From UHGV virus genome UHGV-0128348: a stretch of DNA of 42,240 bases. One strand, written 5' to 3'. The translations under genes were made by a program, and so were the position numbers. The notes under the pieces are model-generated. The model was not told the DNA's origin, made no database searches, and worked only from the letters and a program-made list of their open reading frames with translations. Source of the stretch: a virus. Within the stretch, counting starts at the first letter, position 1; each line of letters begins with the position of its first letter. Below, one piece after another: positions 1 through 41,048 of the stretch.

Positions 1-774
1 GTTAGTGACTTTTTGCATTGAGCCGGACACTGTCGGCGGCAACGAGGAAAACTCCCCCTGTAACACACCTAACTGGCTGATTAATGCTGGTACGACTTTA
101 TCAATCGTGAGTTGCCCCTGGTCAGCCATCGCTTTAAGATCTTTTCGGGCAACCCCCATACCAGCAGCCAGGGCACGGATGACACGATCCCCAGCTTCGT
201 TAACCGCGTTAAACTCTTCGCCACGCAAAACACCCTGAGCAAGCGCCTGGCTAAACTGGGTAATAACAGAACCGGCTTCTTCTGTGCTTGCACCAGATAG
301 CTTTAGTCCTGTTGATACCGCTTCGGTGATTTTGAGCACTTCATCTGAGCTGTAGCCAAATTCACGCATTGATGCTGCAGCGCGTGAAAATAAATTAGCG
401 TTATCAGTAAAAGCAGTGCCCGTACTCTGGCTGATCGCCATTAATCGGGTCTGAGATAAAGTAAAATCATTCGTAGACACTGAGGCTTGTTTAAGCCGTG
501 CATTTACTGAGTTCCATTGGTCTGCAATCTGAACCAGTTTTCCTGTTGCAAATGCTGCAGCTGCAGCTGTAGCAGCTCGACCCGCTGAAGCAAATCCATC
601 CGTTAAATCGGAAAGAGCTTTTTGGCTTTCTTTCGCAGCGGCAGCAGCCTGGCGCCCACCATTCTGCATGGTTTTATAATAGTCTTGCCCCATGCGTGAA
701 GCTCGGGCGATCTCAGTCTGGAATGATTGAGAGTTTGCTGAAACCTTTATGATAAGCTCACGTAGGGTTGCCAT
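1..774 (-). CDS. phage tail tape measure protein, N-terminal part (gene continues past window start)
   Basis: Minus-strand frame open from ATG 774..772 (GAGGA RBS) to window edge; translation MATLRELIIKVSANS...FTDNANLFSRAAASMREFGYS...EEFNAVNEAG; lies downstream of the G/T chaperone pair. Confidence 0.7.
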   Translation of the reverse strand, partial: MATLRELIIKVSANSQSFQTEIARASRMGQDYYKTMQNGGRQAAAAAKESQKALSDLTDGFASAGRAATAAAAAFATGKLVQIADQWNSVNARLKQASVSTNDFTLSQTRLMAISQSTGTAFTDNANLFSRAAASMREFGYSSDEVLKITEAVSTGLKLSGASTEEAGSVITQFSQALAQGVLRGEEFNAVNEAGDRVIRALAAGMGVARKDLKAMADQGQLTIDKVVPALISQLGVLQGEFSSLPPTVSGSMQKVTN

Positions 775-835: not shown

Positions 836-1357
836 TCAACTACAAATCTCGCCCCATAGTTTAGAAAATTCAGTTCCACCATCATCAATAATGGTCATTC
901 CACTTTTACTTACATACCTTTTAAACCCAGCATATGCACCAAAGCTGTTTTTAGCATTTACTTGTCCGCATACATATCCGTCACGACCAACGATCTGATT
1001 TTTGAAGGTTGCAGATTCGGGGTCTTTTAATTCAGCCTTAACACTAGGGTTGCTTGCTGATATAACATTCATGTTGTTGTATCTTTTCTGCCTATCGTTC
1101 TCGCTAATTCTCATTAGCTCCTCATGGTTCTCATACCTCTCCCCCCACAAAGGGACCATTGAGTTAACAAAAAACAAGACAAATACAGAACCGAGAATTA
1201 TCAAAAGAGAAGCAATTTCCCCGCCAATCTTATCAATATATTTTAAAGGAATAACCAAAACAGCAAAAAGAAACACAATTGATATTGGTTGCCTTAACGC
1301 AATAATAAATGCTATAGCAAAAACTACTAAAGATAAAACGCCCAATATTTTTTTCAT
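836..1357 (-). CDS. AT-rich membrane protein of unknown function (moron between tail chaperone and tape measure genes)
   Basis: 173-aa ORF; N-terminal hydrophobic segments then a soluble C-terminal domain; low GC versus flanking tail genes; own downstream terminator. Confidence 0.55.
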   Translation of the reverse strand: MKKILGVLSLVVFAIAFIIALRQPISIVFLFAVLVIPLKYIDKIGGEIASLLIILGSVFVLFFVNSMVPLWGERYENHEELMRISENDRQKRYNNMNVISASNPSVKAELKDPESATFKNQIVGRDGYVCGQVNAKNSFGAYAGFKRYVSKSGMTIIDDGGTEFSKLWGEICS

Positions 1358-1431
1358 TTTTTATCCCAATAGGTAGAAAAGAACTAAAATCCTACCATTG
1401 GTTATGTAAAACTTCAGCTATCATTGTTTGT

Positions 1432-1737
1432 TCAAACTGATGCCGCGAGCAAAGCGGCCTCCAAGCCTGCAAAAGGATCGCCGCTGTCGCTTGCCTCGCC
1501 CTCTTCTGCGCTCCACTGAATCTGTGCGTCTTCAATGGTGACTTTACCGCCCTGTGCCCCGTACATCGCTGAAACCAGCTGAGCATTGAGAATATCGCCG
1601 CGAATATCGCCGATTGGGCTGATACGGTCGTATTCAGCCCACATCCGGAATTCGCCGACTGTCATGGTTTGTCGCAGTTCGCCCAGCGTGCGGCCCATCC
1701 GGAGCGCCAGCGCCATCAGGAACTGCATGCCAGGCAA
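1432..1737 (-). CDS. tail assembly chaperone frameshift extension (gpT-like), probably made as a G-T fusion by -1 frameshift
   Basis: ORF in the -1 frame relative to the upstream chaperone, overlapping its last codons (GCA AAG TAA); no ATG of its own (first codon TTG). Confidence 0.5.
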   Translation of the reverse strand: MPGMQFLMALALRMGRTLGELRQTMTVGEFRMWAEYDRISPIGDIRGDILNAQLVSAMYGAQGGKVTIEDAQIQWSAEEGEASDSGDPFAGLEAALLAASV

Positions 1738-1739
1738 TT

Positions 1740-2144
1740 TTACTTTGCTTTGGCATCATCCGCATCACGAATGAGATCAAGTGCCTGTTTCAACAACCGG
1801 GAATGGACAGGGCCATAAATTGCTTCAACCTGTTCGGTATCTTCGACGGTGAAAACGTACTGCAGGTCGGTATCCAGCAGAATATCAATGAAGAGTGTGA
1901 CATCTGCCCGCATCGTGCGGAACGCGCGTTCTGAAGGGGTCAGTTCTGGCACCTCTGGCGCTTCCTGCCCTTCCGGTGGTTTTGGTTGTTCCGGGCTGGC
2001 AATCCCCTGCCAGCGAATCCAGGCTTCAGCCGATGGTTCACGAATGATAACTTTGGCGTTTTCCCACTCCGGAACGGTGACTTCTTTTTTACGGAAACCC
2101 GCCATCGGGGCCAGCGCCAGCGCTTTAAGATTCTGTTTTGACAT
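1740..2144 (-). CDS. phage tail assembly chaperone (gpG-like)
   Basis: 134-aa acidic ORF between major tail and tape measure genes; canonical G position. Confidence 0.65.
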   Translation of the reverse strand: MSKQNLKALALAPMAGFRKKEVTVPEWENAKVIIREPSAEAWIRWQGIASPEQPKPPEGQEAPEVPELTPSERAFRTMRADVTLFIDILLDTDLQYVFTVEDTEQVEAIYGPVHSRLLKQALDLIRDADDAKAK

Positions 2145-2174
2145 TAAGTTTATCGCCGGTTTCCCGGCGCTCCA

Positions 2175-2879
2175 TTAACTGATGGTGACGGTGTGGTCAG
2201 CAGAGGTGATAACGGTGCCATCGGCATCTGTAACCACGCAGGAATAAACCCCGGCGTCACCTGATACTGCGCTGGACTTATTAAACGTTGCGCTGGTCTG
2301 CCCGCTGACTGTAGAAGAGCCTTTTTTCCAGACGTAGGTATAAGGCGCCGTGCCGCCCTGAACCACCACACCCATTGTCAGGGCGCTTCCGGCTGCTACC
2401 GTCTGCGATGCAGGAAGGTCTGTGGCAAAAGACAGTGCCGCAGCAGCATCAATATTTCCTGGCTTGCCTTTCAGGCGCAGGGAGAACGTTGCGGCCACTA
2501 CGCCATTGGTTTGAGAATCCCAGGTGTGCTGACGTACCTCAGCGCGCCACATGAACCCATTTCCAGACGGGAAAATAACCTTAAATCCATAAATGCCGTC
2601 GTTATCGTACGCTTTGCGAAGCGCATCCTGCGCCGGGTTGCGGTAGAAGTTACCAGAGAGGGACACTTCCGACGGGGCAGGAAGGCCGTTGATATTCTCC
2701 GTTTCTTCCGAGCATAGAGTGGTCACGTCAATATCGTTTTTGTGACCAGCGGTAAAGCTGGCCTGTTTAATGGTGCAACTCAGGTTGAGCCAGGTCGCTG
2801 TTTCAAGTTCATCCGCAGTGACCGGCACTGACGTAATCATTACTTTCGTTTTTTGGGCGCGTTCGTACAATGCTGACAT
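2175..2879 (-). CDS. major tail protein with C-terminal Ig-like domain
   Basis: ORF 2175..2891; probable start at second ATG (2879) preceded by GGAGG; C-terminal Ser/Thr/Gly-rich segment ...TAPYTYVWKKGSSTVSGQTSATF...GVYSCVVTDADGTV resembles Big_2/Ig-like. Confidence 0.65.
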   Translation of the reverse strand: MSALYERAQKTKVMITSVPVTADELETATWLNLSCTIKQASFTAGHKNDIDVTTLCSEETENINGLPAPSEVSLSGNFYRNPAQDALRKAYDNDGIYGFKVIFPSGNGFMWRAEVRQHTWDSQTNGVVAATFSLRLKGKPGNIDAAAALSFATDLPASQTVAAGSALTMGVVVQGGTAPYTYVWKKGSSTVSGQTSATFNKSSAVSGDAGVYSCVVTDADGTVITSADHTVTIS

Positions 2880-2895
2880 TGCAGCCTCCATAAAT

Positions 2896-15012: not shown

Positions 15013-16302
15013 TTACAACTCTCGGTAAGCTGGTTGCAAAGCTTCACACCATTGTCTTAAAGTCGAAGCTCTTCGTTTCTTAGTTTTATCGCTAAGCGAT
15101 AAGCACATATCAAACAAAAAAGGCTCCGCCGTTGTGGGATCTAGCTCTGAAAGATTTTTTGCCTGGCTCCATTGTATCCAAGCCCAACCACAATGACTGG
15201 CCTCAAAACCACGAGCCGCAATTCTTAATCTCTTTTCATGATCAGATTCAGCTAATTGTTGTCCCATTGCAGAGATTGAACCATTTTCATTAAGTAAACC
15301 TAGTATTTTACCTGCGTGTATATAGTACAGTATATGGCGAGTATCCAACCCTGTACTAATTAGATCGAGATATATCCCCTTCCATTTTAACTCTACAACT
15401 TTAAAAACTTGATCAATTAAATTTGCTTGGGGCACCTGATAACCGCCAACAACCTGGGCAGACATCTTAGCCAAAGCTGTTGAGTAAAACTCAGCATCCG
15501 TTTTTCGAACCGTTAATACAATCTCATCTGTATAGTTATTTTTCAATTCAAAACTTGAACTTGTATTAACAACAGAGTCAAATAAAGCCGAAAGCATTTG
15601 AACATCAATCTTATTATTTTTAATAAAACTAACTATATCACCCTTAAGACGAATCAGATCATTTAGCTCTTTTAATAACGGCTCTACTGTCTGCATTTTC
15701 TCTGCCTGAAAAGAAAGCACAAAAGATCCAGGGCGACCCGCCACTGGTCGCATCAAGTCCTTTTCATCAAAAGAGTTAATTATAGATGAATATAAGTTAT
15801 TGAAACATTCGAATAATTTAGAAACACCACTTAGTACTAATGGGTCCGTAGATGACTTAGTTTTCTCCACATGTATTTCATGCGTTGAAAACTCAATTGC
15901 CTTGCCTATTTTACCATTAGCTAAAACAGGCAGTACAGAGCTTATAAACAATCCACTTTGTGGCAAAGTCATGTTGTTAGATACTTCAGACGAATCTAAA
16001 GCCAATGCTACAACACGCTCATCCTCATAAAAAATATCTAACTGATAGTATTTCTTTTGTTCTTGGTGCATTAGAACGCTACGAATATCTATTCTTTTTC
16101 TTTCCAAAGATTCTAAGCGTTCAGCAGATATAGGAATGATGATCCACTTTTCGAAGTCATCAAAGTCCCCTAACCAATAAACAACAAAGAGACTATTTAT
16201 CTCATTAGTCACTGAGAAAAATTTTGGACCTTCGAAAAACTCATAGACATTTTCGTATTTTAGTTCACCAAACACGCTGTCTTTAAGGAAGATGTTACTC
16301 AT
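15013..16302 (-). CDS. hypothetical protein, 429 aa, second gene of AT-rich two-gene cassette
   Basis: Long ORF with low GC; 4-nt overlap with upstream gene; no Walker A or other motif I recognise. Confidence 0.65.
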   Translation of the reverse strand: MSNIFLKDSVFGELKYENVYEFFEGPKFFSVTNEINSLFVVYWLGDFDDFEKWIIIPISAERLESLERKRIDIRSVLMHQEQKKYYQLDIFYEDERVVALALDSSEVSNNMTLPQSGLFISSVLPVLANGKIGKAIEFSTHEIHVEKTKSSTDPLVLSGVSKLFECFNNLYSSIINSFDEKDLMRPVAGRPGSFVLSFQAEKMQTVEPLLKELNDLIRLKGDIVSFIKNNKIDVQMLSALFDSVVNTSSSFELKNNYTDEIVLTVRKTDAEFYSTALAKMSAQVVGGYQVPQANLIDQVFKVVELKWKGIYLDLISTGLDTRHILYYIHAGKILGLLNENGSISAMGQQLAESDHEKRLRIAARGFEASHCGWAWIQWSQAKNLSELDPTTAEPFLFDMCLSLSDKTKKRRASTLRQWCEALQPAYREL

Positions 16303-16745
16303 TTATCCAACCTCCTTATACAAACGAATTTGGCATGAACCTGAGATTCGTTGTAAAGCCATATTGTGTAGTGAGTTGAATCAGGAGCTCCAGTTTTTAG
16401 AATAACACCGTCATTAGCTGCAAACTCACCCTGAGCAACAAATCGCTCTCCAATACCATCAGGAAACTTATTAAAGGCATTAATAATTGAATTTTCATCA
16501 GTATAAACTGATACGCCATAACAACATTTTAGCTTATGCCCTTTAAATTTTTTTAATCGTTTAGGATTTTCATCTTTCATATTCAAAAAGCACTGATCCC
16601 CTGGAGGATTTGCCTTTGTAAGACGAAAGAATACACCTGAAGCATCTTGCGCTTCCTTAGGTGGAGTGCCCGCAGGGAAGTCCGCGGGAAACGTTAACGA
16701 TTTTTTATTTTTTGTCGTTTGCTGTGAGATTTGAGTCATGTCCAT
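16299..16745 (-). CDS. hypothetical protein, 148 aa, first gene of AT-rich two-gene cassette
   Basis: ORF preceded by about 300 bp of very AT-rich sequence; no signal peptide; no recognisable domain. Confidence 0.6.
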   Translation of the reverse strand: MDMTQISQQTTKNKKSLTFPADFPAGTPPKEAQDASGVFFRLTKANPPGDQCFLNMKDENPKRLKKFKGHKLKCCYGVSVYTDENSIINAFNKFPDGIGERFVAQGEFAANDGVILKTGAPDSTHYTIWLYNESQVHAKFVCIRRLDK

Positions 16746-17058
16746 AATCCAAGACGATTAACAGAAAAACTGCCAATCACTTTGGTAAATCAGGACAATC
16801 CGTTGGCATTAGATGCAATATAGCAACAAGTAAACACTTCATAAATGCCATTTGGTTATATAAAGAATGACTTAACAACTCCATTTGTTATAAATGCTAT
16901 ATATTGATAGTTGAGCATATTTAGGCACTAAATATGTCCAATTACTGTTAATTGGCTATGTATATATTGAACCTATTCCCCGAGCTCCACATAAGTTCCG
17001 TTTCGTGGAGCCGATACCGACGGTTTTGCACCGGAAGAATCTTCGCGGGAGTATGTAG

Positions 17059-17131
17059 TGCTGGTTGACGGAACTGAACCGCCTACATCCTGCTTACAAG
17101 GCAGGCGCTCTCCCAACTGAGCTAACCCAGC
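17059..17131 (-). tRNA. tRNA-like gene, anticodon UGU (Thr), with non-canonical features
   Basis: Minus-strand cloverleaf: acceptor GCTGGGT, D-arm GCTCAGTTGGGAGAGC, anticodon stem CCTGC/GCAGG with loop CTTGTAA, T-arm GGCGG-TTCAGTT-CCGTC; G6-A67 mismatch; G at position 58; no encoded CCA. Confidence 0.5.
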
Positions 17132-18171
17132 AAATTACGCATTTCCATGACCGTTTGATCAAATCGCTCGGTTTCCAGTTCAACACCGATTCCACTCCGC
17201 CCGAGCAGAGCAGCTTGCTTTAGTGTGGAACCCGAACCAGCAAAGAAATCAGCTACGACATCCCCTGGCCAACTGCTTGCAGTAATGATCTGCTGAAGCA
17301 TATCGGCAGGTTTTTCGCATGGGTGCTTACCTGGATAAAACTGAACCGGCTTATGTGTCCAGACGTCGGTATATGGCACCGTGACCGACACGCTAAATGG
17401 GCGCCGTAACCGGTAATACTCCTGCTGAAGTTCAGAATACTTCCGGTTAAGTGATTGCCAGGTAGCGACAAGCTGGTGGTGAGGTTTTCCCAGTTCGTTG
17501 CGTGAGTGCTTATCCATGGCGATTTTTTGAAACAAAGCCTGCAACTTCAAATAATCGGCTTCATTCGGCAGTTGCCACTGGCTAAGGCCAAACCAGTGGG
17601 AAACCATATTTTTTTTACCCGTGGCTTCTGCAATCTGGGCCGACGTCACGCCAAGAGATTCCCGGGCATCCCGGAAGTAAGAAATTAAAGGCGTCATGAC
17701 GTGTTGCTTTAACTCATTACACTTTGCGGCATATCCATCGTCTTTGGGCCTGTATGGCCCCTGATAATGGTCGGCAAAAATGATACGCTCAGTTGCGGGG
17801 AAATAAGCGCGTAAGCTCTCCTTATTGCAGCCGTTCCATCGCCCTGATGGCTTAGCCCAGATGATATGGTTGAGCAAGTTAAACCGCTCTCTCACCAACA
17901 GCTCAATATCCGCTGCCAGGCGTTGCCCACAGAAGAGATACATGCTGCCGGCAGGTTTTAACACTCGCCAGAACTGTGCCAGACAGCTATCCAGCCAACG
18001 TAAATAGTCCTCGTCCCCCTTCCATTGGTTATCCCAGCCGTTTGGCTTCACCTTAAAATAAGGCGGATCGGTAACAATAAGATCAATGGAGTTATCGGGT
18101 ATCGATGGGAGGTATTGCAGGCAATCAGCATTGATTAATTCAATACTGGATATTTTTACAGTATTTTTCAT
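17122..18171 (-). CDS. DNA N6-adenine methyltransferase (DPPY motif, Dam-like phage methylase)
   Basis: 349-aa ORF with N-terminal ...LIVTDPPYF... and C-terminal ...FFAGSGSTL... AdoMet motif; last 10 nt overlap the tRNA-like gene. Confidence 0.8.
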   Translation of the reverse strand: MKNTVKISSIELINADCLQYLPSIPDNSIDLIVTDPPYFKVKPNGWDNQWKGDEDYLRWLDSCLAQFWRVLKPAGSMYLFCGQRLAADIELLVRERFNLLNHIIWAKPSGRWNGCNKESLRAYFPATERIIFADHYQGPYRPKDDGYAAKCNELKQHVMTPLISYFRDARESLGVTSAQIAEATGKKNMVSHWFGLSQWQLPNEADYLKLQALFQKIAMDKHSRNELGKPHHQLVATWQSLNRKYSELQQEYYRLRRPFSVSVTVPYTDVWTHKPVQFYPGKHPCEKPADMLQQIITASSWPGDVVADFFAGSGSTLKQAALLGRSGIGVELETERFDQTVMEMRNLLG

Positions 18172-22484: not shown

Positions 22485-22957
22485 TCAGCCTCCAGCACTA
22501 TCTTCAACTCAAACGGAACATCTCCTCCGCAATAGCAGAGCGGGCCAAGGTCAGACATAAGGCTCCACAGGGTCATTGACGTATAGCCATTTTCGTCTGT
22601 TACCGGGGGCGAAAAGTCCCCGAAGATCCTCGGGTGCTGGATTCGATTCTGCTCGTGTTGTTTTTCCAAATGTCTGAGGGAGACTTCATTAAGTTTCACT
22701 TTTACGATGCTGTTGAGATTGACCGATATTTCTCTGGCCAACAGCGAAGGGGTGATACTGATACCGCGAGAAACCCCGCGGGTAATCTTGATGGCCCCTT
22801 TTCTCTCCAGCGCCTTGAGGTGCGTTGCTGCTGCATTGGGGGACCGGCACCCCAGCATTCCGGTCAGTTCGTAAGTTGTAGGCGGAAAACCATGTTTACG
22901 CTGATATTCGATCAGGAGGTCCAGGACCTCCTGCTGCCTTAAGGTCAAGGAAGTCAT
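22481..22957 (-). CDS. LexA-like winged-helix DNA-binding protein with uncharacterised C-terminal domain
   Basis: ORF 22481..22984; likely ATG 22957 overlapping the C5-MTase stop (ATGA); ...LTLRQQEVLDLLIEYQRKHGFPPTTYELTGMLGCRSPNAAATHLKALERKGAIKI... resembles LexA N-terminal DBD. Confidence 0.55.
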   Translation of the reverse strand: MTSLTLRQQEVLDLLIEYQRKHGFPPTTYELTGMLGCRSPNAAATHLKALERKGAIKITRGVSRGISITPSLLAREISVNLNSIVKVKLNEVSLRHLEKQHEQNRIQHPRIFGDFSPPVTDENGYTSMTLWSLMSDLGPLCYCGGDVPFELKIVLEAE

Positions 22958-24936
22958 GCTGCCTGCTCCTCTCTGTTCACGCACATTTCGGGTAAGTTGG
23001 CGCGTACCAGCGCTTCGGCGAACGGCGGCGGGACGGCATTGCCACAGCGCGCGACCTGCTTATCTTTCGCGTATTTCACGCCGCGGTAATCCTGGTCAAT
23101 GATGTACCACTCCGGAAAGCCCTGCGCCCGGTAGAGCTCGTGCGGCTGCAGCATGCGCATGCCGATATCAACGATTCGGTAAGTCACCCCGCCAATTTCC
23201 ACCAGTCCGGTGCTATCCTTCCCGCAGTATTCCTGCAGGAACGCCAGCACCTGCTGCGCGCGCTCGTCGTCGTAGTCCTCGACCGCCAGGGTCGTTTTAA
23301 CCTCCCCCACGTGCTGGCCGCCAGCAGTGATAGTCGGCATCGGCTCGTCAGTAGTCTGGCCGTCACGGCAAGTACCGCGCAGTTTAACCAGATGAGAAGC
23401 GACTAATGCGTGGTGATCGACAGTCGTTACTGAATGCGCTGGCTCATCCAGCCCCACGCCGGCGCCCTGATAATTCCCACCGTAGTGTTTTGCCAGGAAC
23501 GCACCAACTACGGCATGTTTCCCACCACCAGCCACAACAGTTCCTAGCGGCTTATCCAGTCCTGGCACGCGAGGAGCCTGGCCGGGCCGTTCTCCGTATC
23601 CCATTTGAATGAGCGTCGGCACAACCAGCTGCGATTTACCGCCGCCGCCCGCGGTGATTGTTGCGCTTGGTTCATCGGCACGGTGTCCGACGCTGGCGCC
23701 AAACTGACGAGCGATGACCGGCGCAACAACACAAGCTCGTGACTCTTTCAGGATGGTGTGAGCGGGTTTATCGAGCGGGCGTGGTTTAGCCTGGTACTCG
23801 CTGCCGCCATTGCCAGCCAGGAACGGAGCCAGCTCTGCTTCAACAATACCCATAGCGTGACCATTCCCGCCCGGGCGTTTTGCGGTACCGGCCGTCACCG
23901 TCGGCAACGGATCGGTGACTTCCTGCCCGGTAGCTCCGGTTCGGAATTTTGTCAGATGAGGTACCGCAATTGCGTAGCCGTGGGTTTTCGTAATCGTCTG
24001 TAGCGGATCGTCCAGCGCCTGTCCCCGGAAACAGTCATATTTGCCACGTGTCGTTGTGTGATTGCACTTCACGATGAATGGCGAAGCACTTTCGATAACA
24101 AAGCGCTGAATGCCGCGGGCAATCCGTTTTAGCGTATTCTCTGCCAGTGACTTTTTGCGACCGAAGATGCTCGGCGCGGGGATTGACCAGTCTATGCATT
24201 CCGCAGCTGTACGCCACGGCTCAAGCTGGCCCGCCAGCACGGCGGCAGACTTCGGATCCCCGTGCGTGGCTTCCGGCCAGACTATCGGTTTCCCGTCCCG
24301 GCGCATCACCATGAAGAACCGCTTACGGATGGTCGGCGCGCCATAATCGCAGGCGCGCAGCTCGCGAAAATCGACGACATAACCCAGCCCGGCAATTAAG
24401 CGCTTGGCCTGCTCGCTATCCGGTGAAAACTCCAGAAACTCGCAACACTCCACCAGTGCAGGATGATCTGCTGGAATACCGGTGGTAAGCATCCCGACAA
24501 ATGCATTGAAAGTTTCACCGATGCGTGCCGGATCCGGTCGCATTTCTGCCGCGAGTAACGGACCCCACGTCTTAAACTCTTCGACGTTTTCCAGCATCAT
24601 GACTCGCGGGCCAACATCCAGCGCCCAACGAATGACGATCCATGCCAGCCCTCGAATATCTTTCTCTACTGGTTTAGCACCTTTCGCTTTAGAAAAGTGA
24701 CGACAGTCAGGCGAGAACCATGCCAGGCCGACAGGCTTACCACTGGTAGCGGCTAATGGGGATACATCAAACACACTTTCGCAATAGTGAAGCGTGTCGG
24801 GATGGTTAGTGCGGTGCATAGCAACGGCGTTAACATCGTGGTTAATCGCGATATCAACGCTACGCCCTATCGCCAGCTCAATACCTGTACTGGCGCCACC
24901 GCCACCAGCAAAATTATCGACAATAATCTCACGCAT
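22954..24936 (-). CDS. DNA (cytosine-5)-methyltransferase with long repeat-containing variable region
   Basis: 660-aa ORF; motif I FAGGGG, PC-type FSPDCRHFS, ENV (MLENVEEF), motif X RCGNAV; seven D(E/K)P..T(I/V)TAGG-like repeats between them. Confidence 0.8.
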   Translation of the reverse strand: MREIIVDNFAGGGGASTGIELAIGRSVDIAINHDVNAVAMHRTNHPDTLHYCESVFDVSPLAATSGKPVGLAWFSPDCRHFSKAKGAKPVEKDIRGLAWIVIRWALDVGPRVMMLENVEEFKTWGPLLAAEMRPDPARIGETFNAFVGMLTTGIPADHPALVECCEFLEFSPDSEQAKRLIAGLGYVVDFRELRACDYGAPTIRKRFFMVMRRDGKPIVWPEATHGDPKSAAVLAGQLEPWRTAAECIDWSIPAPSIFGRKKSLAENTLKRIARGIQRFVIESASPFIVKCNHTTTRGKYDCFRGQALDDPLQTITKTHGYAIAVPHLTKFRTGATGQEVTDPLPTVTAGTAKRPGGNGHAMGIVEAELAPFLAGNGGSEYQAKPRPLDKPAHTILKESRACVVAPVIARQFGASVGHRADEPSATITAGGGGKSQLVVPTLIQMGYGERPGQAPRVPGLDKPLGTVVAGGGKHAVVGAFLAKHYGGNYQGAGVGLDEPAHSVTTVDHHALVASHLVKLRGTCRDGQTTDEPMPTITAGGQHVGEVKTTLAVEDYDDERAQQVLAFLQEYCGKDSTGLVEIGGVTYRIVDIGMRMLQPHELYRAQGFPEWYIIDQDYRGVKYAKDKQVARCGNAVPPPFAEALVRANLPEMCVNREEQAA

Positions 24937-25882
24937 GAGCGGTCCCCCTCATGCTGCCGACCAGCCCACCAGCAACGGTGATGATTTCGCTGGTGGGCAC
25001 GCGCTCCAGCCACAACTGGTTAATGTGGGCCTTCAGCTTGTTCTGCTGGGAGAACTCCAGATCCTCTGCGCCTTGTACCTGTCCAAAGACGAGTCCAACT
25101 TCCAGTGGCCAGATCCGGGATTCAGGCTCAGCCAATGATGCAACAGCATCGGGGATGATCACTTCAGGAGACTGAACTGGCGAAACTGGTGACAGGAATT
25201 TTCCTGCAGCAAACTCAGCCAGCGCCATACTTGCGCGCCCTTTTGCTTCCAGCTCAACGCGATCGATATAGCTAAAATGTTCACCGCGCCAGGTCTTATC
25301 AAATACCGCAATGGCCCCGGCAAAGAATGCGCTGGTGGGCTTCTGCTTTTCGTCGGCCGGCACAAACCACGTTGGGAGATCGAATCCAATACGACCACGA
25401 ATAAACATGATGTGATCGGCATATTCCGGCCACCATGTTTCACTTGTTGCTGACTTCACGAGGTAAATGTAACGACCACCCTTTTCACGCTGCTCGGCGG
25501 TATAGTTCATAATATGAGTCATGCCAGTGATGGCTTGTTTTTCATGGTACTGCGAACGGCTGTACGGCGGATTAGCAAAGGCCGCTCCTCCGAGTTCTAC
25601 CAAACGACCAGACCAGTCCTGCGTCAGCGCATTATCTTCAGCGGTATACCATGCCGGACATTTTGTATTGCTGTCGTCTGCAAACAGGTCCAGTACCAGC
25701 GGGCCAAACATAGCGTTAACGCCCCAGAACAGCAGATCAGGGGTACGCCATTGATCCCCGACTTCTTTTAAATAATGCGCACTACGCTGGCGCTGTTCCT
25801 CAAGTGCCAGGCAATAAGGGCTGACGGTTTTAGTTAAAGTTTGCTCTTCTGCGGTCATAGCTTCTTGTACTTCCTGACTCAT
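24929..25882 (-). CDS. phage N6-adenine DNA methyltransferase (NPPY motif)
   Basis: 317-aa ORF with ...AFANPPYS... motif; overlaps C5-MTase start by 8 nt. Confidence 0.65.
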   Translation of the reverse strand: MSQEVQEAMTAEEQTLTKTVSPYCLALEEQRQRSAHYLKEVGDQWRTPDLLFWGVNAMFGPLVLDLFADDSNTKCPAWYTAEDNALTQDWSGRLVELGGAAFANPPYSRSQYHEKQAITGMTHIMNYTAEQREKGGRYIYLVKSATSETWWPEYADHIMFIRGRIGFDLPTWFVPADEKQKPTSAFFAGAIAVFDKTWRGEHFSYIDRVELEAKGRASMALAEFAAGKFLSPVSPVQSPEVIIPDAVASLAEPESRIWPLEVGLVFGQVQGAEDLEFSQQNKLKAHINQLWLERVPTSEIITVAGGLVGSMRGTAHA

Positions 25883-36473: not shown

Positions 36474-36680
36474 ATGCTGAGCCTCGATTGTGTTCCCATC
36501 TCAACTTATTGCAAAGAGACAGGCGAAACCCCTGATGCCATAAATAAGCGCATCCAGCGCGGCGTATGGCGTGAAGGGGTACAGGTGCTAAAGGTCGAAG
36601 GCGTTAAGGAAAGATGGATAGATCTTAGTGAGGTTGCAAAATGGGCTCGACAAAATCGCCTAAACTCCCGCGCGGCGTAA
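36474..36680 (+). CDS. xis: excisionase
   Basis: Small basic ORF directly upstream of and overlapping integrase; start at second ATG with GGAG RBS. Confidence 0.55.
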   Translation: MLSLDCVPISTYCKETGETPDAINKRIQRGVWREGVQVLKVEGVKERWIDLSEVAKWARQNRLNSRAA

Positions 36681-37831
36681 CGATCAGGAAACATAGTACT
36701 GGGGAAACTATCAATATTACCTTTACCTATAAGGGGGTGAAATGCCGGGAACCTTTATCAAACCTTGAAATTAATAGCAAAAACATTAAATACGCCGAGC
36801 GAACACTCGGCGAAATTCACAATAAAATTGAGCGGGGTACATTCAATTATGGTGAACACTTTCCCCGTTCGGCACGACTTAAAATATTTGGTAATTCTTC
36901 AACAGGAAAAACGGTAAAAAATTATCTCGATGAATATCTTGTAATTTGTGAAACGAGAAAATTATCTCCCTCAACAATCGGCGGATATAAGAAATGTTTA
37001 AATGCTCTGGCATCACTTCACGTTTTTCCTGCCAGCGAATTAACACCTGCTGCTTTAAAAACATGGATCCAGAGTCAGAAAACGACATTAAAGACGATTA
37101 GGAACCAACTTTCATTCCTACGCTCAGCACTGGATGAAGCTGTGACTGATGGTGTATTGCAGATTAACCCTGTTTCACTGGTGACAGCCTCGCGCTACCA
37201 GAGTAGTAAAACCGAGGATGAAAGTGATTATATTGTTGATCCGCTTTCGCCAGCCGAGGTTGAAGCGCTTTTGCATGCCGCAGGTAACAAGCAGTGGGAA
37301 AACATATTCCGCTTTGCAATTGAAACCGGGCTACGTAGTTCTGAACTCTGCGCCCTCCGTTGGCGCGATATCGACTTTATCGGCAAAACAGCGCATGTGC
37401 AAAATGCCAGCGTAGTGGGGGTAATTAAGGGCACGAAAACTAAAGCTGGAACACGTAAAGTTGAGTTAACCGAAGAAGCCTTGTATGCCCTGACTTCTCA
37501 GAAGCCTTTCACCTTTATGAAAGATGCAACGATCTTTGAGGATCCTAAGACAGAAAAACCATGGGCGGGTGCCGATGCGATAAGAAAGAAAGCCTGGGTG
37601 CCAACTTTACGTAAAGCTGGGATCAGGTACCGTAATCCATACCAGACCAGGCATACGTTCGCGACCCGACATATAAGTCGTGGCGCTAACCTGTTCTGGC
37701 TGGCATCACAGATGGGACATAAAGGGCCAGAAATGTTGTTCAGGCATTATGGACGCTATCTGAAGGAGTATGACGGCAACACTGAAAAACGACCCAAGCT
37801 GGTCAGCGGTGGAACCTCAAAGGAGCCGTAA
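36641..37831 (+). CDS. int: tyrosine integrase (lambda Int family)
   Basis: 396-aa ORF with C-terminal catalytic region ...RHTFATRHISRGANLFWLASQMGHKGPEMLFRHYGRY...; adjacent att core. Confidence 0.85.
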   Translation: MGSTKSPKLPRGVTIRKHSTGETINITFTYKGVKCREPLSNLEINSKNIKYAERTLGEIHNKIERGTFNYGEHFPRSARLKIFGNSSTGKTVKNYLDEYLVICETRKLSPSTIGGYKKCLNALASLHVFPASELTPAALKTWIQSQKTTLKTIRNQLSFLRSALDEAVTDGVLQINPVSLVTASRYQSSKTEDESDYIVDPLSPAEVEALLHAAGNKQWENIFRFAIETGLRSSELCALRWRDIDFIGKTAHVQNASVVGVIKGTKTKAGTRKVELTEEALYALTSQKPFTFMKDATIFEDPKTEKPWAGADAIRKKAWVPTLRKAGIRYRNPYQTRHTFATRHISRGANLFWLASQMGHKGPEMLFRHYGRYLKEYDGNTEKRPKLVSGGTSKEP

Positions 37832-37889
37832 AGGATCCGCAGCAAAACGCTAAATTTTTTTATCATTGTTTATCATGATGTTATTAAGT

Positions 37890-37925
37890 TTCGGGCGCGG
37901 GTTCAACTCCCGCCAGCTCCACCAA
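37890..37925 (+). other. tmRNA (ssrA) 3'-end fragment = prophage att core
   Basis: TTTCGGGCGCGGGTTCAACTCCCGCCAGCTCCACCA matches the enterobacterial ssrA 3' end as I recall it; upstream sequence is not ssrA. Confidence 0.7.
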
Positions 37926-37955
37926 ACATTCATTCATGATGCATCATGAACCTTA

Positions 37956-37993
37956 AAAAAGCCTGCAACTTCAACGAGTTGCAGGCTTTTTTG
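37956..37993 (+). terminator. rho-independent terminator (probable native ssrA terminator)
   Basis: Hairpin GCCTGCAACT-TCAACG-AGTTGCAGGC flanked by A6 and T6. Confidence 0.65.
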
Positions 37994-38090
37994 TTGCATG
38001 TGTGGTCATGATCTCTGTATGAATCTTGAGCATTATGTATCTTGTTTTGCACCGCGTTGCCTGAACGCTAAAAAAACAAGGTGCAAAAAC

Positions 38091-39338
38091 ATGCCTAAGG
38101 TATTGAAATCCCTAACCAATACCGAGATCGCTGCCGCCAAGCCGCAGAAGACCGAGTATATGCTGCGCGATGGCGACGGACTGGCGTTGTTGATTAAGCC
38201 ATCCGGCAGAAAGATCTGGTACTTCGAATACACTCCCCCGGCGCTGAAAAAACGGACCAAAATCAGCATTGGCCCCTATCCGGTAGTCACCCTCGCCATG
38301 GCGCGAGATTTCAGGTTGCAATACCGGCGTTTACTCGTGCAGGGCATCGACCCGCAGGCCCATCTGGAGCAGGTTGCAGAGGAGCAACGACTCCAGAATG
38401 AATGCACGCTGGAAAAAGTGGCAGAACAGTGGCTCAAAGAGAAAAAACGGACCAGCGATCTTAGCGAAGATCACGCCAAAGATGTCTGGCGCTCGCTGGA
38501 GATGCACGTCTTCCCTTCTCTGGGTAATACACCCGTTACCGAGATCCGTCCCAAAATGCTCAAGGAACACCTTACACCGCTGGAAGAACAGGGCATCCTC
38601 GAAACGCTGCGGCGGGTTATCTCACGACTCAATGAAATCTTCCGCTTCGCCATCTCCGAAGAGCTTATCGAGTTTAACCCAGCAGACAACCTGGTCGCCC
38701 GCTTTAAGAAACCGAAAAAGCAGAATATGCCCGCCCTTCACCCCAGCGAGCTGGGCAGGCTGATGCTGGCGCTATAGAACGCCTCTATCCGCAAGGAAAC
38801 CCGCTGCCTTATCGAATGGGAGCTACTGACCTGGGTTCGCCCCGGCGAAGCCGTCAGCGCCCGCTGGTGCGACATCGATATGAAAAAAGCGGAATGGCGC
38901 ATCCCCGATACTTTTATGAAGATGAACCGTTCGCACACGGTGCCGCTCAGCAAACAGGCGCTGCGCGTTCTTCAGGTTATGGAGCCCGTCAGTCGCCATC
39001 GCCCGTGGGTTTTCCCCAGTATCCGCAAACCACTGGAGCATATGCACCAGCAGACCGCGAACGCCGCGCTTATCCGCATGGGGTTCGGCGGCGAACTGGT
39101 CGCCCACGGCATGCGCAGCATCGCCAGGACCGCAGGAGCAGGTCATTTTCCCCGTGAAGTCCTGGAATCTGCGCTAGCACACCAGAAAGAAGACGAGATC
39201 GAAGCGGCCTACAACCGCAGCGACTATCTGGAACAAAGGCGACCGCTGATGCAGTGGTGGGGAAACTACGTTGATGCTGCCAGACGGCAGGCATTGCTCG
39301 GTGAAGAAGAACCGCTGCGGATCGTGGAAGGAGAATAA
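38091..39338 (+). pseudogene. P4-type (IntA-like) integrase interrupted by one in-frame TAG
   Basis: ORFs 37998..38777 and 38880..39338 share a frame; the frame is open across 38778..38879; only stop is TAG 38775..38777; N-terminus MPKVLKSLTNTEIAAAKP..., C-terminus ...YNRSDYLEQRRPLMQWW... Confidence 0.7.
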
Positions 39339-39339
39339 T

Positions 39340-39984
39340 GTGACCAGTCCCATTCGTCAGAATCTGTTTGAACGGGAATGCGATATGCCGCTGCTGGAAG
39401 CGCGGCATCTCGCCCTTCTGCTTCTCGGCCTTGATGCTTCCCAACCTGCAAACGCCCTACCGGAAGAACATCAGGAGAATTACCGTATCCTGCACGACGC
39501 CATCAGCCGCACCATCAAAGCCACAGGCATGGTCAGCGCCCCTGCAAACAAACGTATGTTCTATGCCGATGAGATGTTCGCGCTGGCCTGGCGGCTTATT
39601 GATGACGAACTCACGCCGCCAGAAATTAAGGCCCGCAGCCTGAAGGCGGTGATGAAACTGTCGCGTAACGGTCGTGGTCGCAAGTGGCTGAAGACGCTCG
39701 GCGACGACGCGCTACCGGATCTCACTGCTTCCGCACAACCTTCCCAGCGTGGAATGTATAAGCGCGACAAAGCGCGGGAGAATACTGCCCGACTCTGCTG
39801 GCTACTGGTTCAGCTACTGGTTGAGGAGACTGACGGACGGTATGGGACGTATGATAAACCAGCTTCGGATCGGATACTTCGAAAGCTGAAAATGCTGGCG
39901 CAGGAGCGGGAATTGCCGTCGGATGGGCTTGGACGGGGGACGTTTTATGAGGTGTTGAAGATGGGGCGGGTGAAGAAAGTGTAG
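39340..39984 (+). CDS. hypothetical protein
   Basis: ORF 39271..39984; likely GTG start 39340 with GGAAGGAG RBS just after integrase stop. Confidence 0.45.
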   Translation: MTSPIRQNLFERECDMPLLEARHLALLLLGLDASQPANALPEEHQENYRILHDAISRTIKATGMVSAPANKRMFYADEMFALAWRLIDDELTPPEIKARSLKAVMKLSRNGRGRKWLKTLGDDALPDLTASAQPSQRGMYKRDKARENTARLCWLLVQLLVEETDGRYGTYDKPASDRILRKLKMLAQERELPSDGLGRGTFYEVLKMGRVKKV

Positions 39985-40256
39985 GTAGTTGCTGCATAGT
40001 GTCGGGATGTAACGAACCGATTAAACTCTGAAACCGCCTGATGTATAGTTGGCTTGGAGCCAATAGCAGATATGAATGAATCGATTGCAACAGAATCTCC
40101 GTCTGATCAAGACGTCTTCAAATTCTTGAGGTTATAGTGTGTGGTGCTCAATGAATCGTTGCGCAGGAAATTTGACCTGCGGACCATTTCAGCTGCAGCA
40201 AAAACAGGTAGCGTATCAAATACAGATGAAATCAGGCATTATGCAATGGAGACAAG

Positions 40257-41048
40257 ATGATAGATGAGAGCGCAAAAACGATAGCCGAAAAGCTCGCTGT
40301 TCCGGTTTATGAAGATGCCCTGAGCCCTTTTGCTAAAGAATTATCAAAGGGGTTAGTCTCTATTGCCAGAATGGTAAATTCGGGAATATTCCTAGTTGAA
40401 GACAGTGTGCATGCGGTGACAAGCGTCTTACGGATGACAGCTGAGAATCTGGCATTATTACCACCCAAGCAAATTTCATTCGATCGGCCAAGGGTTGCTC
40501 TTCAGGCTCTAAATGAGGCCAAATTTGCAATAAATGAAGATGAAATACAGCGCCTTTTTTCAAATCTAATATCGGCAAGCCTAGACAAGAAAACTTCGGG
40601 GATTGCTCATCCAGCGTACATCGAAATAATCAAACAGCTCCAGCCGGATGAAGCCAGGATCCTTCGGTTTATGTTTAATAAAGAAAAGAATAGAAAAGGT
40701 CATGCACCCACAATTGATATTGTCCAACAAGATTCAAAGGATAGTAACTTCAGAACCACATCAACTACACCGGAAGTAAACCTAATTTGTGAAGATGCTG
40801 GTTGCGATATCCCCGAAAACTCATTTATGTATTTCTCCAACTTAAAACGATTGGGCCTGCTAACTACAACATCAGGAACTTCTTTCCCAAAGGAAGAGCA
40901 TGAAAGAATTTTCTCATCAGAGAAGGTAAAAGAAATATGCAGTGTAAATTCGCATCTAGATAGAGTTTCTTATAAAAGCGGGCAATATAGTTTTACAGGT
41001 TTTGGTCAAGGCTTTGTAGATTCGTGTATCGGCAGACATAGTATTTAA
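40257..41048 (+). CDS. AT-rich hypothetical protein, possibly Abi-alpha-like
   Basis: 263-aa low-GC ORF beside an integrase; N-terminal ...AEKLAVPVYEDALSPFAKELSKG... recalls Abi_alpha/DUF4393 (memory only). Confidence 0.4.
   Translation: MIDESAKTIAEKLAVPVYEDALSPFAKELSKGLVSIARMVNSGIFLVEDSVHAVTSVLRMTAENLALLPPKQISFDRPRVALQALNEAKFAINEDEIQRLFSNLISASLDKKTSGIAHPAYIEIIKQLQPDEARILRFMFNKEKNRKGHAPTIDIVQQDSKDSNFRTTSTTPEVNLICEDAGCDIPENSFMYFSNLKRLGLLTTTSGTSFPKEEHERIFSSEKVKEICSVNSHLDRVSYKSGQYSFTGFGQGFVDSCIGRHSI

Follow-up and report, generated by a model that had tools for sequence, protein, structure and literature searches.

A minimal A_AAG slip site as the probable −1 frameshift signal of a lambda-type G/GT tail-assembly chaperone pair in a prophage

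The window analysed here (the whole 42,240-nucleotide stretch from UHGV virus genome UHGV-0128348) begins within a minus-strand run of tail genes, in which a major tail protein gene is followed by the tail-assembly chaperone genes G and T, an additional small ORF and a tape measure gene. The features concerned, from the upstream gene to the downstream one in the direction of transcription, are the following.

2175..2891, minus strand: major tail (tube) protein with a C-terminal Ig-like domain, immediately upstream of G; weak Pfam matches to Ig_2/Ig_3, Phage_TTP_11 and Phage_tail_3
1740..2144, minus strand: gene G, tail assembly chaperone, 134 codons plus a TAA stop
1756..1758, minus strand: TGA in the −1 frame, the 5' limit for a productive shift
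1740..1755, minus strand: the only stretch open in both the zero and −1 frames, 16 nt, TGCCAAAGCAAAGTAA
1743..1749, minus strand: putative shift site A_GCA_AAG, with the core tetranucleotide A_AAG at 1746..1743 and the Lys codon AAG at 1745..1743
1740..1742, minus strand: zero-frame TAA stop of G, directly 3' of the slip codon
1432..1755, minus strand: T ORF in the −1 frame, open over 107 codons up to TGA 1434..1432
1432..1743, minus strand: T domain as it would be read after the slip, 103 codons (VKLPGMQFLM...AASV) plus TGA
1679..1737, minus strand: candidate clade-specific hairpin, UUGCCUGGC...GCUGGGCGA, starting 5 nt after AAG in the minimum free energy (MFE) fold
836..1357, minus strand: extra 173-aa ORF between T and the tape measure gene, with no Pfam match and outside the frameshift cassette
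796-815: hairpin between T and the tape measure gene
1..774, minus strand: 5' part of the tape measure gene (PF20155, TMP_3, E=4e-53), which runs off the start of the stretch

Both G and T are genuine genes, members of the lambda G and T families. In Pfam searches, G matched PF06222 (Phage_TAC_1, the lambda gpG family, E=1.7e-43) and the −1 ORF matched PF06223 (Phage_tail_T, the lambda gpT family, E=6.8e-18); G also matched PHROG 344 'tail assembly chaperone' (E=4.8e-40), and one profile, PHROG 14766, takes G at its positions 3-122 and then T at 122-222. An earlier note on this DNA, made from the letters and ORF translations alone, had placed the second ORF in the −1 frame relative to the first, with only a narrow window open in both, and frame translation bears out the two statements, the overlap with G being exactly 16 nt (1755..1740) at a 3' end of G that reads GAT GAT GCC AAA GCA AAG TAA. 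The same note was mistaken in giving the second ORF no ATG, as the listed ORF begins with TTG 1737 and contains in-frame ATGs at 1728..1726 and 1716..1714.

Upstream, the gene homologous to 2175..2891 is annotated as a major tail subunit in relatives. Downstream, the earlier call of a tape measure gene holds in that the PF20155 gene starts at 774, but it is not the immediate neighbor of T, with the 173-aa ORF (1357..836; PHROG 16400/2320, function unknown) lying between the two. This ORF is present in relatives L001 and L003 and absent in L002, and since the slot is variable we regard its occupation here as a minor deviation in synteny. The pair is very probably this prophage's counterpart of the lambda G/GT tail-assembly chaperone pair.

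Where the ribosome could change frame is narrowly circumscribed. G holds a single in-frame A_AAG, formed by its last sense codon, and such tetramers are scarce in the late genes of this phage (9 per 3306 codons), so that only about 0.011 would be expected in the four-codon dual-open stretch and a chance origin of the slip site is unlikely. In the zero frame, this A_AAG lets tRNA-Lys re-pair cognately on AAA. The complete site, A_GCA_AAG_TAA, is not an X_XXY_YYZ heptamer, and its slippery part is the A_AAG tetramer only; a GCA codon preceded by A would face AGC in the −1 frame, where it does not re-pair, and thus a slip here would involve a single tRNA rather than the classical tandem pair. The label 'G/GT-like' in the earlier note therefore suits the gene families and their frame relation but not the motif, which is a tetra- or hexanucleotide site with no heptamer. 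Transcriptional slippage was dismissed, as a long homopolymer run is absent (AAA G only).

Evolutionarily, the site can be followed across a broad set of relatives. We analysed 117 related loci, representing 106 unique G/T sequences (34 of them <95% identical in protein to one another), from sources that include Klebsiella, Raoultella, Serratia, Pantoea, Erwinia, Kosakonia, Symbiopectobacterium and others. In 117/117 loci (106/106 unique sequences), T is read in the −1 frame relative to G. All 106 unique sequences use AAG at the homologous Lys position, as against 912 AAA versus 182 AAG for Lys elsewhere in the same G/T genes. Alignment of the slip region in related phages, which had been proposed as a check, thus finds the −1 frame and A_AAG kept throughout. 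The codon before AAG is always NNA (GCA in 81, AAA in 12, GAA in 7 and GGA in 6 of the 106 unique sequences), and at the Ala codon at −3 all four synonyms are in use. In a synonymous-site scan, the slip codon was identical in 100% of same-residue sequence pairs, versus 46% expected; the flanking windows reached only about 1.4x expectation, comparable to some unrelated windows, which argues that there is no clear additional conserved element around the slip codon.

The relatives narrow the position of the shift further. A synonymous GCC to GCT change in most close relatives puts a stop in the −1 frame, and in 55 related loci the dual-open stretch is cut to 10 nt (AGCAAAGTAA), so that in those relatives a fusion is possible only at GCA AAG. 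Elsewhere in the family, the homologous position is occupied by textbook heptamers, A_AAA_AAG or, as in lambda, G_GGA_AAG, and the spacing from the Lys codon to a conserved F-L-M motif is 7-8 residues throughout. GCA_AAG followed by a stop occurs at no fewer than four (at least 4) places in a neighbor-joining (NJ) tree, interleaved with heptamer lineages. The stop adjoins AAG directly in 30 of the 41 non-redundant relatives, and this holds for every GCA_AAG lineage; in some G_GAA_AAG relatives the stop lies 2-6 codons away. On this comparison, −1 slippage at AAAG just before the stop of G, as first suggested from the single sequence, is the best-supported reading.

Public annotations of all close relatives give G and T as separate proteins. 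A search for natural or annotated GT fusions in a 5.8-billion-protein collection returned, among close homologues, only separate 134-aa G proteins, and three sequences considered as natural GT fusions (P0066, P0067 and P0118) proved to be sporadic indel or frame-error products and not informative. Isolated Klebsiella phages, among them vB_VIPKPNMC05 and '1 LV-2017', have the same G/T arrangement.

The same comparison bears on whether T is simply a decaying, unexpressed remnant in this prophage, its overlap with G fortuitous. Such decay would accord with a slip motif that is degenerate relative to the heptamers of relatives and with the lack of a detected stimulator (below), but the ORF is intact over its 107 open codons and retains its PF06223 match (E=6.8e-18), the protein is conserved across many genera, GCA_AAG lineages persist at their several places in the tree, and the isolated Klebsiella phages share the arrangement. 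We consider decay the least probable of the readings weighed here.

A further question is whether T starts independently, as free T made by termination-reinitiation with no fusion, the ribosome restarting 2 nt past the TAA at TTG 1737 (ATG in close relatives) or at ATG 1728. There is indeed a start codon 2 nt past the stop (TAA AA TTG here, TAA AA ATG in 85 related Klebsiella-clade loci), from which GenBank and PGAP annotation derive a separate T CDS. We found no Shine-Dalgarno (SD) sequence before the in-frame T starts TTG 1737, ATG 1728 and ATG 1716 (anti-SD energies of −0.4, −0.4 and −1.5 kcal/mol, respectively), which speaks against a restart, but G too is without a well-spaced SD, so that the absent SD is not decisive in this phage. 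The ATG is weakened to TTG in this prophage, and no start codon before the FLM motif is conserved across the family: one is present in the Klebsiella clade only, and the Pantoea, Erwinia and Kalamiella GCA_AAG lineages read KVKEPGTF, KVRQPGTF or KVKQPLTF, with no ATG, GTG or TTG ahead of the motif. In lambda, moreover, T acts only within GT (Atkins et al. 2016, PMC5009743). Reinitiation would also not need an invariant −1 frame, AAG and NNA codon, all of which are invariant in the 106 unique sequences, and we regard it as unlikely.

Much less probable still is a +5 hop over the stop, in which peptidyl-tRNA-Lys would pass from AAG 1745..1743 to AAA 1740..1738 and translation would resume at TTG 1737, giving a junction ...AKAK-LPGM that lacks the Val-Lys of a −1 product. 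Matched take-off and landing Lys codons do stand on either side of the stop (AAG TAA AAT here), and low-level +5/+6 hops over stops in E. coli were reportedly seen by Weiss et al. 1987. However, the landing codon is missing in lineages with the same site (AAG TAA GAC AGC in L031/L032; AAG TAG CCC in L004, L011 and L013), so that hopping cannot be the conserved mechanism, and hops over stops are generally much rarer than A_AAG slips.

RNAalifold on 33 diverse junctions retained 2 pairs (−0.42 kcal/mol), and a family-wide downstream RNA stimulator was rejected; downstream MFE z-scores at the junctions were about −0.5 to −0.9 and not significant, with z=−0.75 for the 70 nt downstream of the site in this prophage. 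Tetramer-type junctions had neither stronger structure (mean z −0.50 vs −0.85) nor a stronger SD (mean energy −4.1 vs −5.2 kcal/mol) than heptamer-type ones. No upstream SD-like stimulator was found in this prophage (anti-SD duplex of −3.3 kcal/mol), and a few relatives do have such an element, for example L012 (UGAGGAGG, −12.1 kcal/mol). No Rfam frameshift element came near threshold at the junction, and the sole Rfam match, mycoplasma_FSE (23.6 bits vs a gathering score of 88), lies outside it at 1341..1419 and was put down to chance. A hairpin noticed by eye about 36 nt downstream (GCGCUCC-GGAU-GGGGCGC) was rejected as too distant from the site, with a C:C mismatch in the clade of this prophage on manual reading of the alignment and only the 2 pairs kept by RNAalifold.

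The hairpin at 1737..1679 deserves separate weighing, as it is what a translocation-stage slip would call upon. In that 'hexanucleotide' NNA_AAG mode, tRNA-Ala on GCA would occupy the P site and tRNA-Lys on AAG the A site, the hairpin would stimulate, and the stop would play no part. In the MFE fold, a 9-bp stem with further inner pairs begins 5 nt past AAG, a typical stimulator spacing, and since some G_GAA_AAG relatives have their stop 2-6 codons off, the family can do without an adjacent stop. tRNA-Ala(cmo5UGC) is a tRNA of high wobble propensity. A shift in this mode is favored by P-site tRNAs of high wobble propensity, and in IS1222 and IS3 constructs NNA_AAG sites act in the same manner, with a pseudoknot placed downstream (PMC5009743). 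Against this, the hairpin does not exceed shuffled sequence in stability (z=+1.5, beside the −0.75 of the 70-nt downstream stretch), shows no compensatory changes among the 9 unique sequences of its clade, has its inner pairs broken in clade members and is without counterpart in other lineages, other GCA_AAG ones included; the stop, by contrast, directly adjoins AAG in every GCA_AAG lineage. We regard the hairpin as an unsupported candidate for a stimulator and consider the translocation-stage slip rather improbable, if less so than reinitiation.

Mechanistically, we posit that this prophage makes GT by −1 frameshifting, a reading to which, as an argument from comparative sequence data, we assign a probability of roughly 80%. 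Most ribosomes would stop at TAA 1742..1740 and yield the 134-aa G, while a minority would move back 1 nt on A_AAG (1746..1743) as the single tRNA-Lys(UUU) lets go of AAG and pairs anew, with a perfect match, to the overlapping AAA. The −1 frame would then be read as GUA AAA UUG CCU..., with nucleotide 1743 read twice in the predicted GT, to give a 237-aa fusion with the junction ...D-A-D-D-A-K-A-K / V-K-L-P-G-M-Q-F-L-M.... The slip would most likely occur when peptidyl-tRNA-Lys occupies the P site and the stop codon, slow to be decoded, stands in the A site, TAA beside AAG serving as a pause signal, or 'shifty stop'; stop codons adjacent to a slip site are said to have been described as stimulators under that name by Weiss et al. 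1987. That the shift occurs, at what stage, with what help from the stop codon and how efficiently is what we infer from the pattern of conservation, and since no structural or SD stimulator was detected, the efficiency could be very low unless the adjacent stop stimulates. By analogy with lambda, the G portion of G and GT would coat the tape measure protein, and the T portion of the rare GT would recruit the major tail protein.

The host is probably Klebsiella or a related enterobacterium, judging from the nearest relatives, and decoding of both AAA and AAG by one tRNA-Lys(UUU) is the general enterobacterial picture. The tRNA encoded by the phage itself is a tRNA-Thr. Atkins et al. likewise describe a single enterobacterial tRNA-Lys(UUU) that reads AAA and AAG (PMC5009743). 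Going further, and with somewhat less than even confidence, we suggest that the essential signal in this G/T branch may be A_AAG plus a stop alone, used in a P-site single-tRNA slip for which neither P-site re-pairing nor an RNA or SD stimulator would be needed, the upstream codon drifting freely among AAA, GAA, GCA and GGA and possibly tuning the G:GT ratio.

The lambda-type G/GT system is already known, and what is new here is a further member with a minimal slip site. In practical terms, the annotation of the pair should read G and a frameshifted GT, not two proteins, both in this prophage and at roughly 90 near-identical loci of Klebsiella/Raoultella phages and prophages, and predictors that rely on heptamers alone would miss the A_GCA_AAG site. 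The family also offers a natural allelic series at one position (A_AAA_AAG, G_GGA_AAG, G/A_GAA_AAG and G/A_GCA_AAG, with the stop adjacent or not) that could be used to measure the shares of P-site re-pairing and of the neighboring stop in enterobacterial −1 frameshifting, and to gauge how much GT tails really need. If the reading of A_AAG plus stop as the whole signal were true, heptamers in G/T genes would be embellishments that can be dispensed with, and minimal recoding sites overlooked by heptamer-based predictors would lie concealed behind many annotations of 'two separate genes'.

Compared with known systems, the likeness to lambda G/GT extends to the families (PF06222 for G, PF06223 for T), to T lying in the −1 frame over the 3' end of G, to the order of major tail protein, G, T and tape measure (here with the extra ORF before the last), and to a slip Lys AAG that is homologous in position, lying 7 residues ahead of the conserved F-x-x helix start. 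The −1 frameshift in lambda is established (Levin, Hendrix & Casjens 1993; Xu, Hendrix & Duda 2004, 2013, 2014, as cited in PMC5009743), and the G:GT ratio that lambda requires is about 30:1 (Atkins et al. 2016, PMC5009743). In lambda, however, the site is a heptamer (G_GGA_AAG) that precedes the G stop by 5 codons within a 64-nt dual-open stretch, whereas here A_GCA_AAG stands beside the stop in 16 nt and its P-site codon cannot re-pair; the lambda T domain is about 140 aa, and that of this prophage 103 aa.

Natural NNA_AAG sites are known from B. subtilis cdd (A_CGA_AAG) and IS1222 (G_CGA_AAG) (Atkins et al. 2016, PMC5009743). As here, only A_AAG re-pairs in them, with a single tRNA-Lys(UUU) and a low expected efficiency, but their 5' codon is CGA rather than GCA, and IS1222 and reporter constructs use a downstream pseudoknot, whereas the present site has no detectable stimulator besides the adjacent stop. 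Values for individual NNA_AAG codons are said to be given by Licznar et al. 2003. No tetramer shifts frame more readily in E. coli than A_AAG; Z_ZZN tetramers lacking a stimulator barely exceed background (0.147% vs 0.112%), and it took the IS3 pseudoknot to bring A_AAG to 5.6% (Sharma et al. 2014, PMC4066793).

E. coli dnaX (A_AAA_AAG) shares with this site the AAG Lys codon, slippage of tRNA-Lys and an enterobacterial host, but it combines a full heptamer with an upstream SD-like element and a downstream hairpin, none of which stimulators was found here. The dnaX site shifts at about 50%. Within the same family and at the same position, E. coli O157:H7 and other enterobacterial prophages (L004, L011-L013, L015, L020 and others) carry A_AAA_AAG plus a stop. 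These junctions resemble the present one in having the stop directly after AAG and a predicted junction K/V-x-x-P, and differ in being full dnaX-type heptamers at which tandem re-pairing is possible, AAA being replaced here by GCA. A plausible route from AAA to GCA, to judge by the codons of relatives, would pass through GAA as a one-step intermediate of the kind seen in L010.

The late genes of this phage run on the minus strand, 5' to 3', as terminase, portal, protease, capsid, connectors and major tail protein, followed towards the window edge by the tail chaperone region:

2891..2175, minus: major tail protein with an Ig-like C-terminus
2144..1740, minus: G, lambda gpG-family tail assembly chaperone, 134 codons (PF06222, E=1.7e-43)
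1755..1432 (open), minus: T, lambda gpT-family domain, -1-frame ORF (PF06223, E=6.8e-18)
1357..836, minus: extra ORF of 173 codons separating T from the tape measure gene
774 to window edge, minus: start of the tape measure gene (PF20155, E=4e-53)

The Pfam matches and reading frames confirm the paired tail chaperone ORFs in -1 relation described in the earlier note. G and T also tile PHROG 14766 (224 positions; G matches 3-122, T matches 122-222), so phage annotations do include a fused GT family. Against 5.8 billion proteins, the close homologues of the predicted GT were only separate 134-aa G proteins and three sporadic indel-type fusions, so the fusion is unannotated in this clade.

At the junction, the zero frame reads GAT GAT GCC AAA GCA AAG TAA AAT TGC CTG GCA TGC and the -1 frame TGA TGC CAA AGC AAA GTA AAA TTG CCT GGC ATG, with a stretch open in both frames of exactly 16 nt (1755..1740), as had been claimed. 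The candidate slip site, A_GCA_AAG (1749..1743), does not fit X_XXY_YYZ; the P-site tRNA-Ala at GCA would face AGC after a -1 shift, without re-pairing. Its core, A_AAG, is scarce in frame (9 in 3306 codons of the late genes), the single in-frame copy in G is the last sense codon, and only ~0.011 would be expected by chance in the four-codon dual-open window; its placement at the end of G is unlikely to be chance. A_AAG is the most shift-prone E. coli tetramer, giving 5.6% in a reporter with the IS3 pseudoknot, while tetramers without a stimulator barely exceeded background (0.147% versus 0.112%; Sharma et al. 2014, PMC4066793). Natural NNA_AAG sites include A_CGA_AAG in B. subtilis cdd and G_CGA_AAG in IS1222, with efficiency depending on the wobble properties of the 5'-codon tRNA (Atkins et al. 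2016, PMC5009743).

Conservation was assessed in 6 annotated relatives, lambda among them, and 116 more loci (36 Enterobacterales species genomes and 80 IMG/VR viral contigs), from which 117 loci could be analysed, yielding 106 unique G+T sequences. T lay in the -1 frame of G with A_AAG at the homologous position in 117/117 loci, and the homologous Lys codon was AAG in 106/106 unique sequences, against 912 AAA to 182 AAG for Lys elsewhere in the same genes; at the sequence level, this supports the -1 frameshift that the earlier note had thought probable. The preceding codon ended in A throughout (GCA 81, AAA 12, GAA 7, GGA 6), whereas the Ala codon lying another two codons 5', our internal control for neutral drift, used all four synonyms (GCT 51, GCC 33, GCG 6, GCA 6). 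A pairwise synonymous-site scan (34 sequences, <95% identity) likewise gave 100% identity of the slip codon among same-residue pairs versus 46% expected. A synonymous change from GCC to GCT creates a -1-frame TAA in 55 close relatives and shrinks the dual-open window to AGCAAAGTAA, so that any fusion there must form at GCA AAG. A stop codon directly follows AAG in every GCA_AAG lineage and in 30/41 non-redundant junctions overall.

These data bear on the rival explanations. The main one is termination-reinitiation at TTG 1737 (ATG in close relatives). Contrary to the 'no ATG' of the earlier note, the second ORF has in-frame TTG 1737, ATG 1728 and ATG 1716. None of the three is preceded by a Shine-Dalgarno sequence (anti-SD duplexes of -0.4, -0.4 and -1.5 kcal/mol), the start codon is not conserved beyond the clade of the window, and reinitiation does not account for AAG, NNA and the frame relation being invariant. 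In the window, a ribosome could hop +5 from AAG to AAA, but the landing codon for this is missing from other lineages that retain the site. A dead T gene is contradicted by an intact, conserved ORF that is present in isolated phages.

On a rough neighbour-joining tree of fused GT proteins, GCA_AAG occurred in four or more separate places, with A_AAA_AAG and G_GGA_AAG lineages interspersed between them: a Klebsiella/Raoultella clade including the window (sister to an A_GAA_AAG locus), and the related loci L027/L031/L032, L024 and L034/L038. AAA, GAA, GCA and GGA are linked by single-base steps that each preserve the third-position A; together with the interleaving, this indicates that the P-site codon is evolutionarily labile and A_AAG fixed. 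In Candidatus Symbiopectobacterium endolongispinus (~1440-1540 of that locus), the slip-site A-run is one A longer (GCC AAA AAA AAA G TAA), so that T is read in frame with the C-terminus of G (AKKKVTQPGMQFLM), and the resulting junction, ...AKKK-VTQPGMQFLM..., is exactly of the predicted type; the G N-terminus is disrupted there, and thus the prophage appears to be decaying.

Stimulators were sought around the site. RNAalifold found essentially no conserved downstream structure among 33 diverse junctions (2 pairs, -0.42 kcal/mol), 70-nt downstream folds were no better than shuffles (mean z -0.5 for junctions with only the A_AAG tetramer, -0.85 for those with a slippery heptamer), and the junction fragment of the window itself showed no stabilisation (z=+1.5). 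The window had no SD-like element upstream of the slip site (-3.3 kcal/mol), and no Rfam frameshift family came near threshold. The minimum free energy fold contains a hairpin at 1737..1679, beginning 5 nt 3' of AAG; it is not supported as a stimulator, since the clade shows no compensatory changes and the other GCA lineages lack an equivalent. A translocation-stage slip aided by this hairpin would be a variant with the same outcome and is less well supported. Separately, several related loci (L038, L042 and L041; ~1502-1512 in each) carry SD-like AAGGAG/AAGGAA directly 3' of the G stop (TAA AGG AGC C); the closest in-frame ATG lies ~18 nt away, too far for initiation there.

Elsewhere in the tail operon, as read from the sequence alone, a GC-rich hairpin (cgccgg-GAAA-ccggcg, 2169..2154, minus) lies between the major tail protein stop and the G start, with GGAG (2173..2170) just upstream. 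No SD stands at the usual distance from the G start, ATG 2144, and the hairpin might draw GGAG nearer the G start or set the tail protein:G ratio. The 836-1357 product has a hydrophobic N-terminus, no Pfam match, and PHROG matches only to function-unknown families (16400, 2320); a GC hairpin with A/T runs on either side follows (796-815). As similarity in many related phages ends exactly at the T stop (1437), this ORF looks like a variable 'moron' slot. Outside the operon, we noted:

15013-16745: low-GC island (0.36-0.37 versus ~0.51 elsewhere), encoding a 429-aa DUF6575 protein (E=3.7e-38) and a 148-aa ORF without Pfam or PHROG match
17058-17131: tRNA-Thr(TGT), adjoining the island
17125-18171, 22957-24936, 24932-25882: three DNA methyltransferase genes in one prophage (as listed: N6/N4 type; 660-aa protein with a C5-cytosine methylase domain; Dam-like enzyme)
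36641-37828: full tyrosine integrase
37998-38774: second integrase-like ORF, N-terminal part only
40257-41045: Abi_alpha abortive-infection gene, in low-GC DNA

The first island is probably accessory prophage cargo, and the gene content of 36641-41045 hints at an island in the same attachment region, either a neighbour or a remnant.

For the junction, slippage of peptidyl-tRNA-Lys at AAG beside the stop codon is the most likely mechanism; homology, frames, site conservation and the lack of Shine-Dalgarno sequences at the in-frame starts are observed here, whereas that the shift takes place, when it does so and how efficiently are inferred. The majority of ribosomes would stop at TAA (1742..1740), releasing G, whereas in a minority peptidyl-tRNA-Lys would slip back from AAG onto the AAA that overlaps it, most likely with the stop codon waiting in the A site; an adjacent stop codon reportedly stimulates slippage ('shifty stops', Weiss et al. 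1987). GUA (Val) would then be decoded, and translation would continue through T to TGA 1434..1432, yielding a 237-aa GT with the junction ...DADDAKAK-VKLPGMQFLM.... Correct annotation is worthwhile, and the junction would offer recoding specialists a convenient natural test case.

In lambda, tail assembly needs G:GT at ~30:1, and the T domain functions within the GT protein (Atkins et al. 2016, PMC5009743). Counted from the slip Lys, the conserved F-L-M lies 7 residues away in both the window and E. coli O157:H7 prophages (A_AAA_AAG TAG), as does F-A-L in lambda (G_GGA_AAG), and 8 residues away in the G_GGA_AAG CCG TAA group; by sequence comparison, the slip position and the proven site of lambda are homologous. 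The junction is not a new kind of system, and is an ordinary lambda G/GT member with a minimal slip site by the stop codon.
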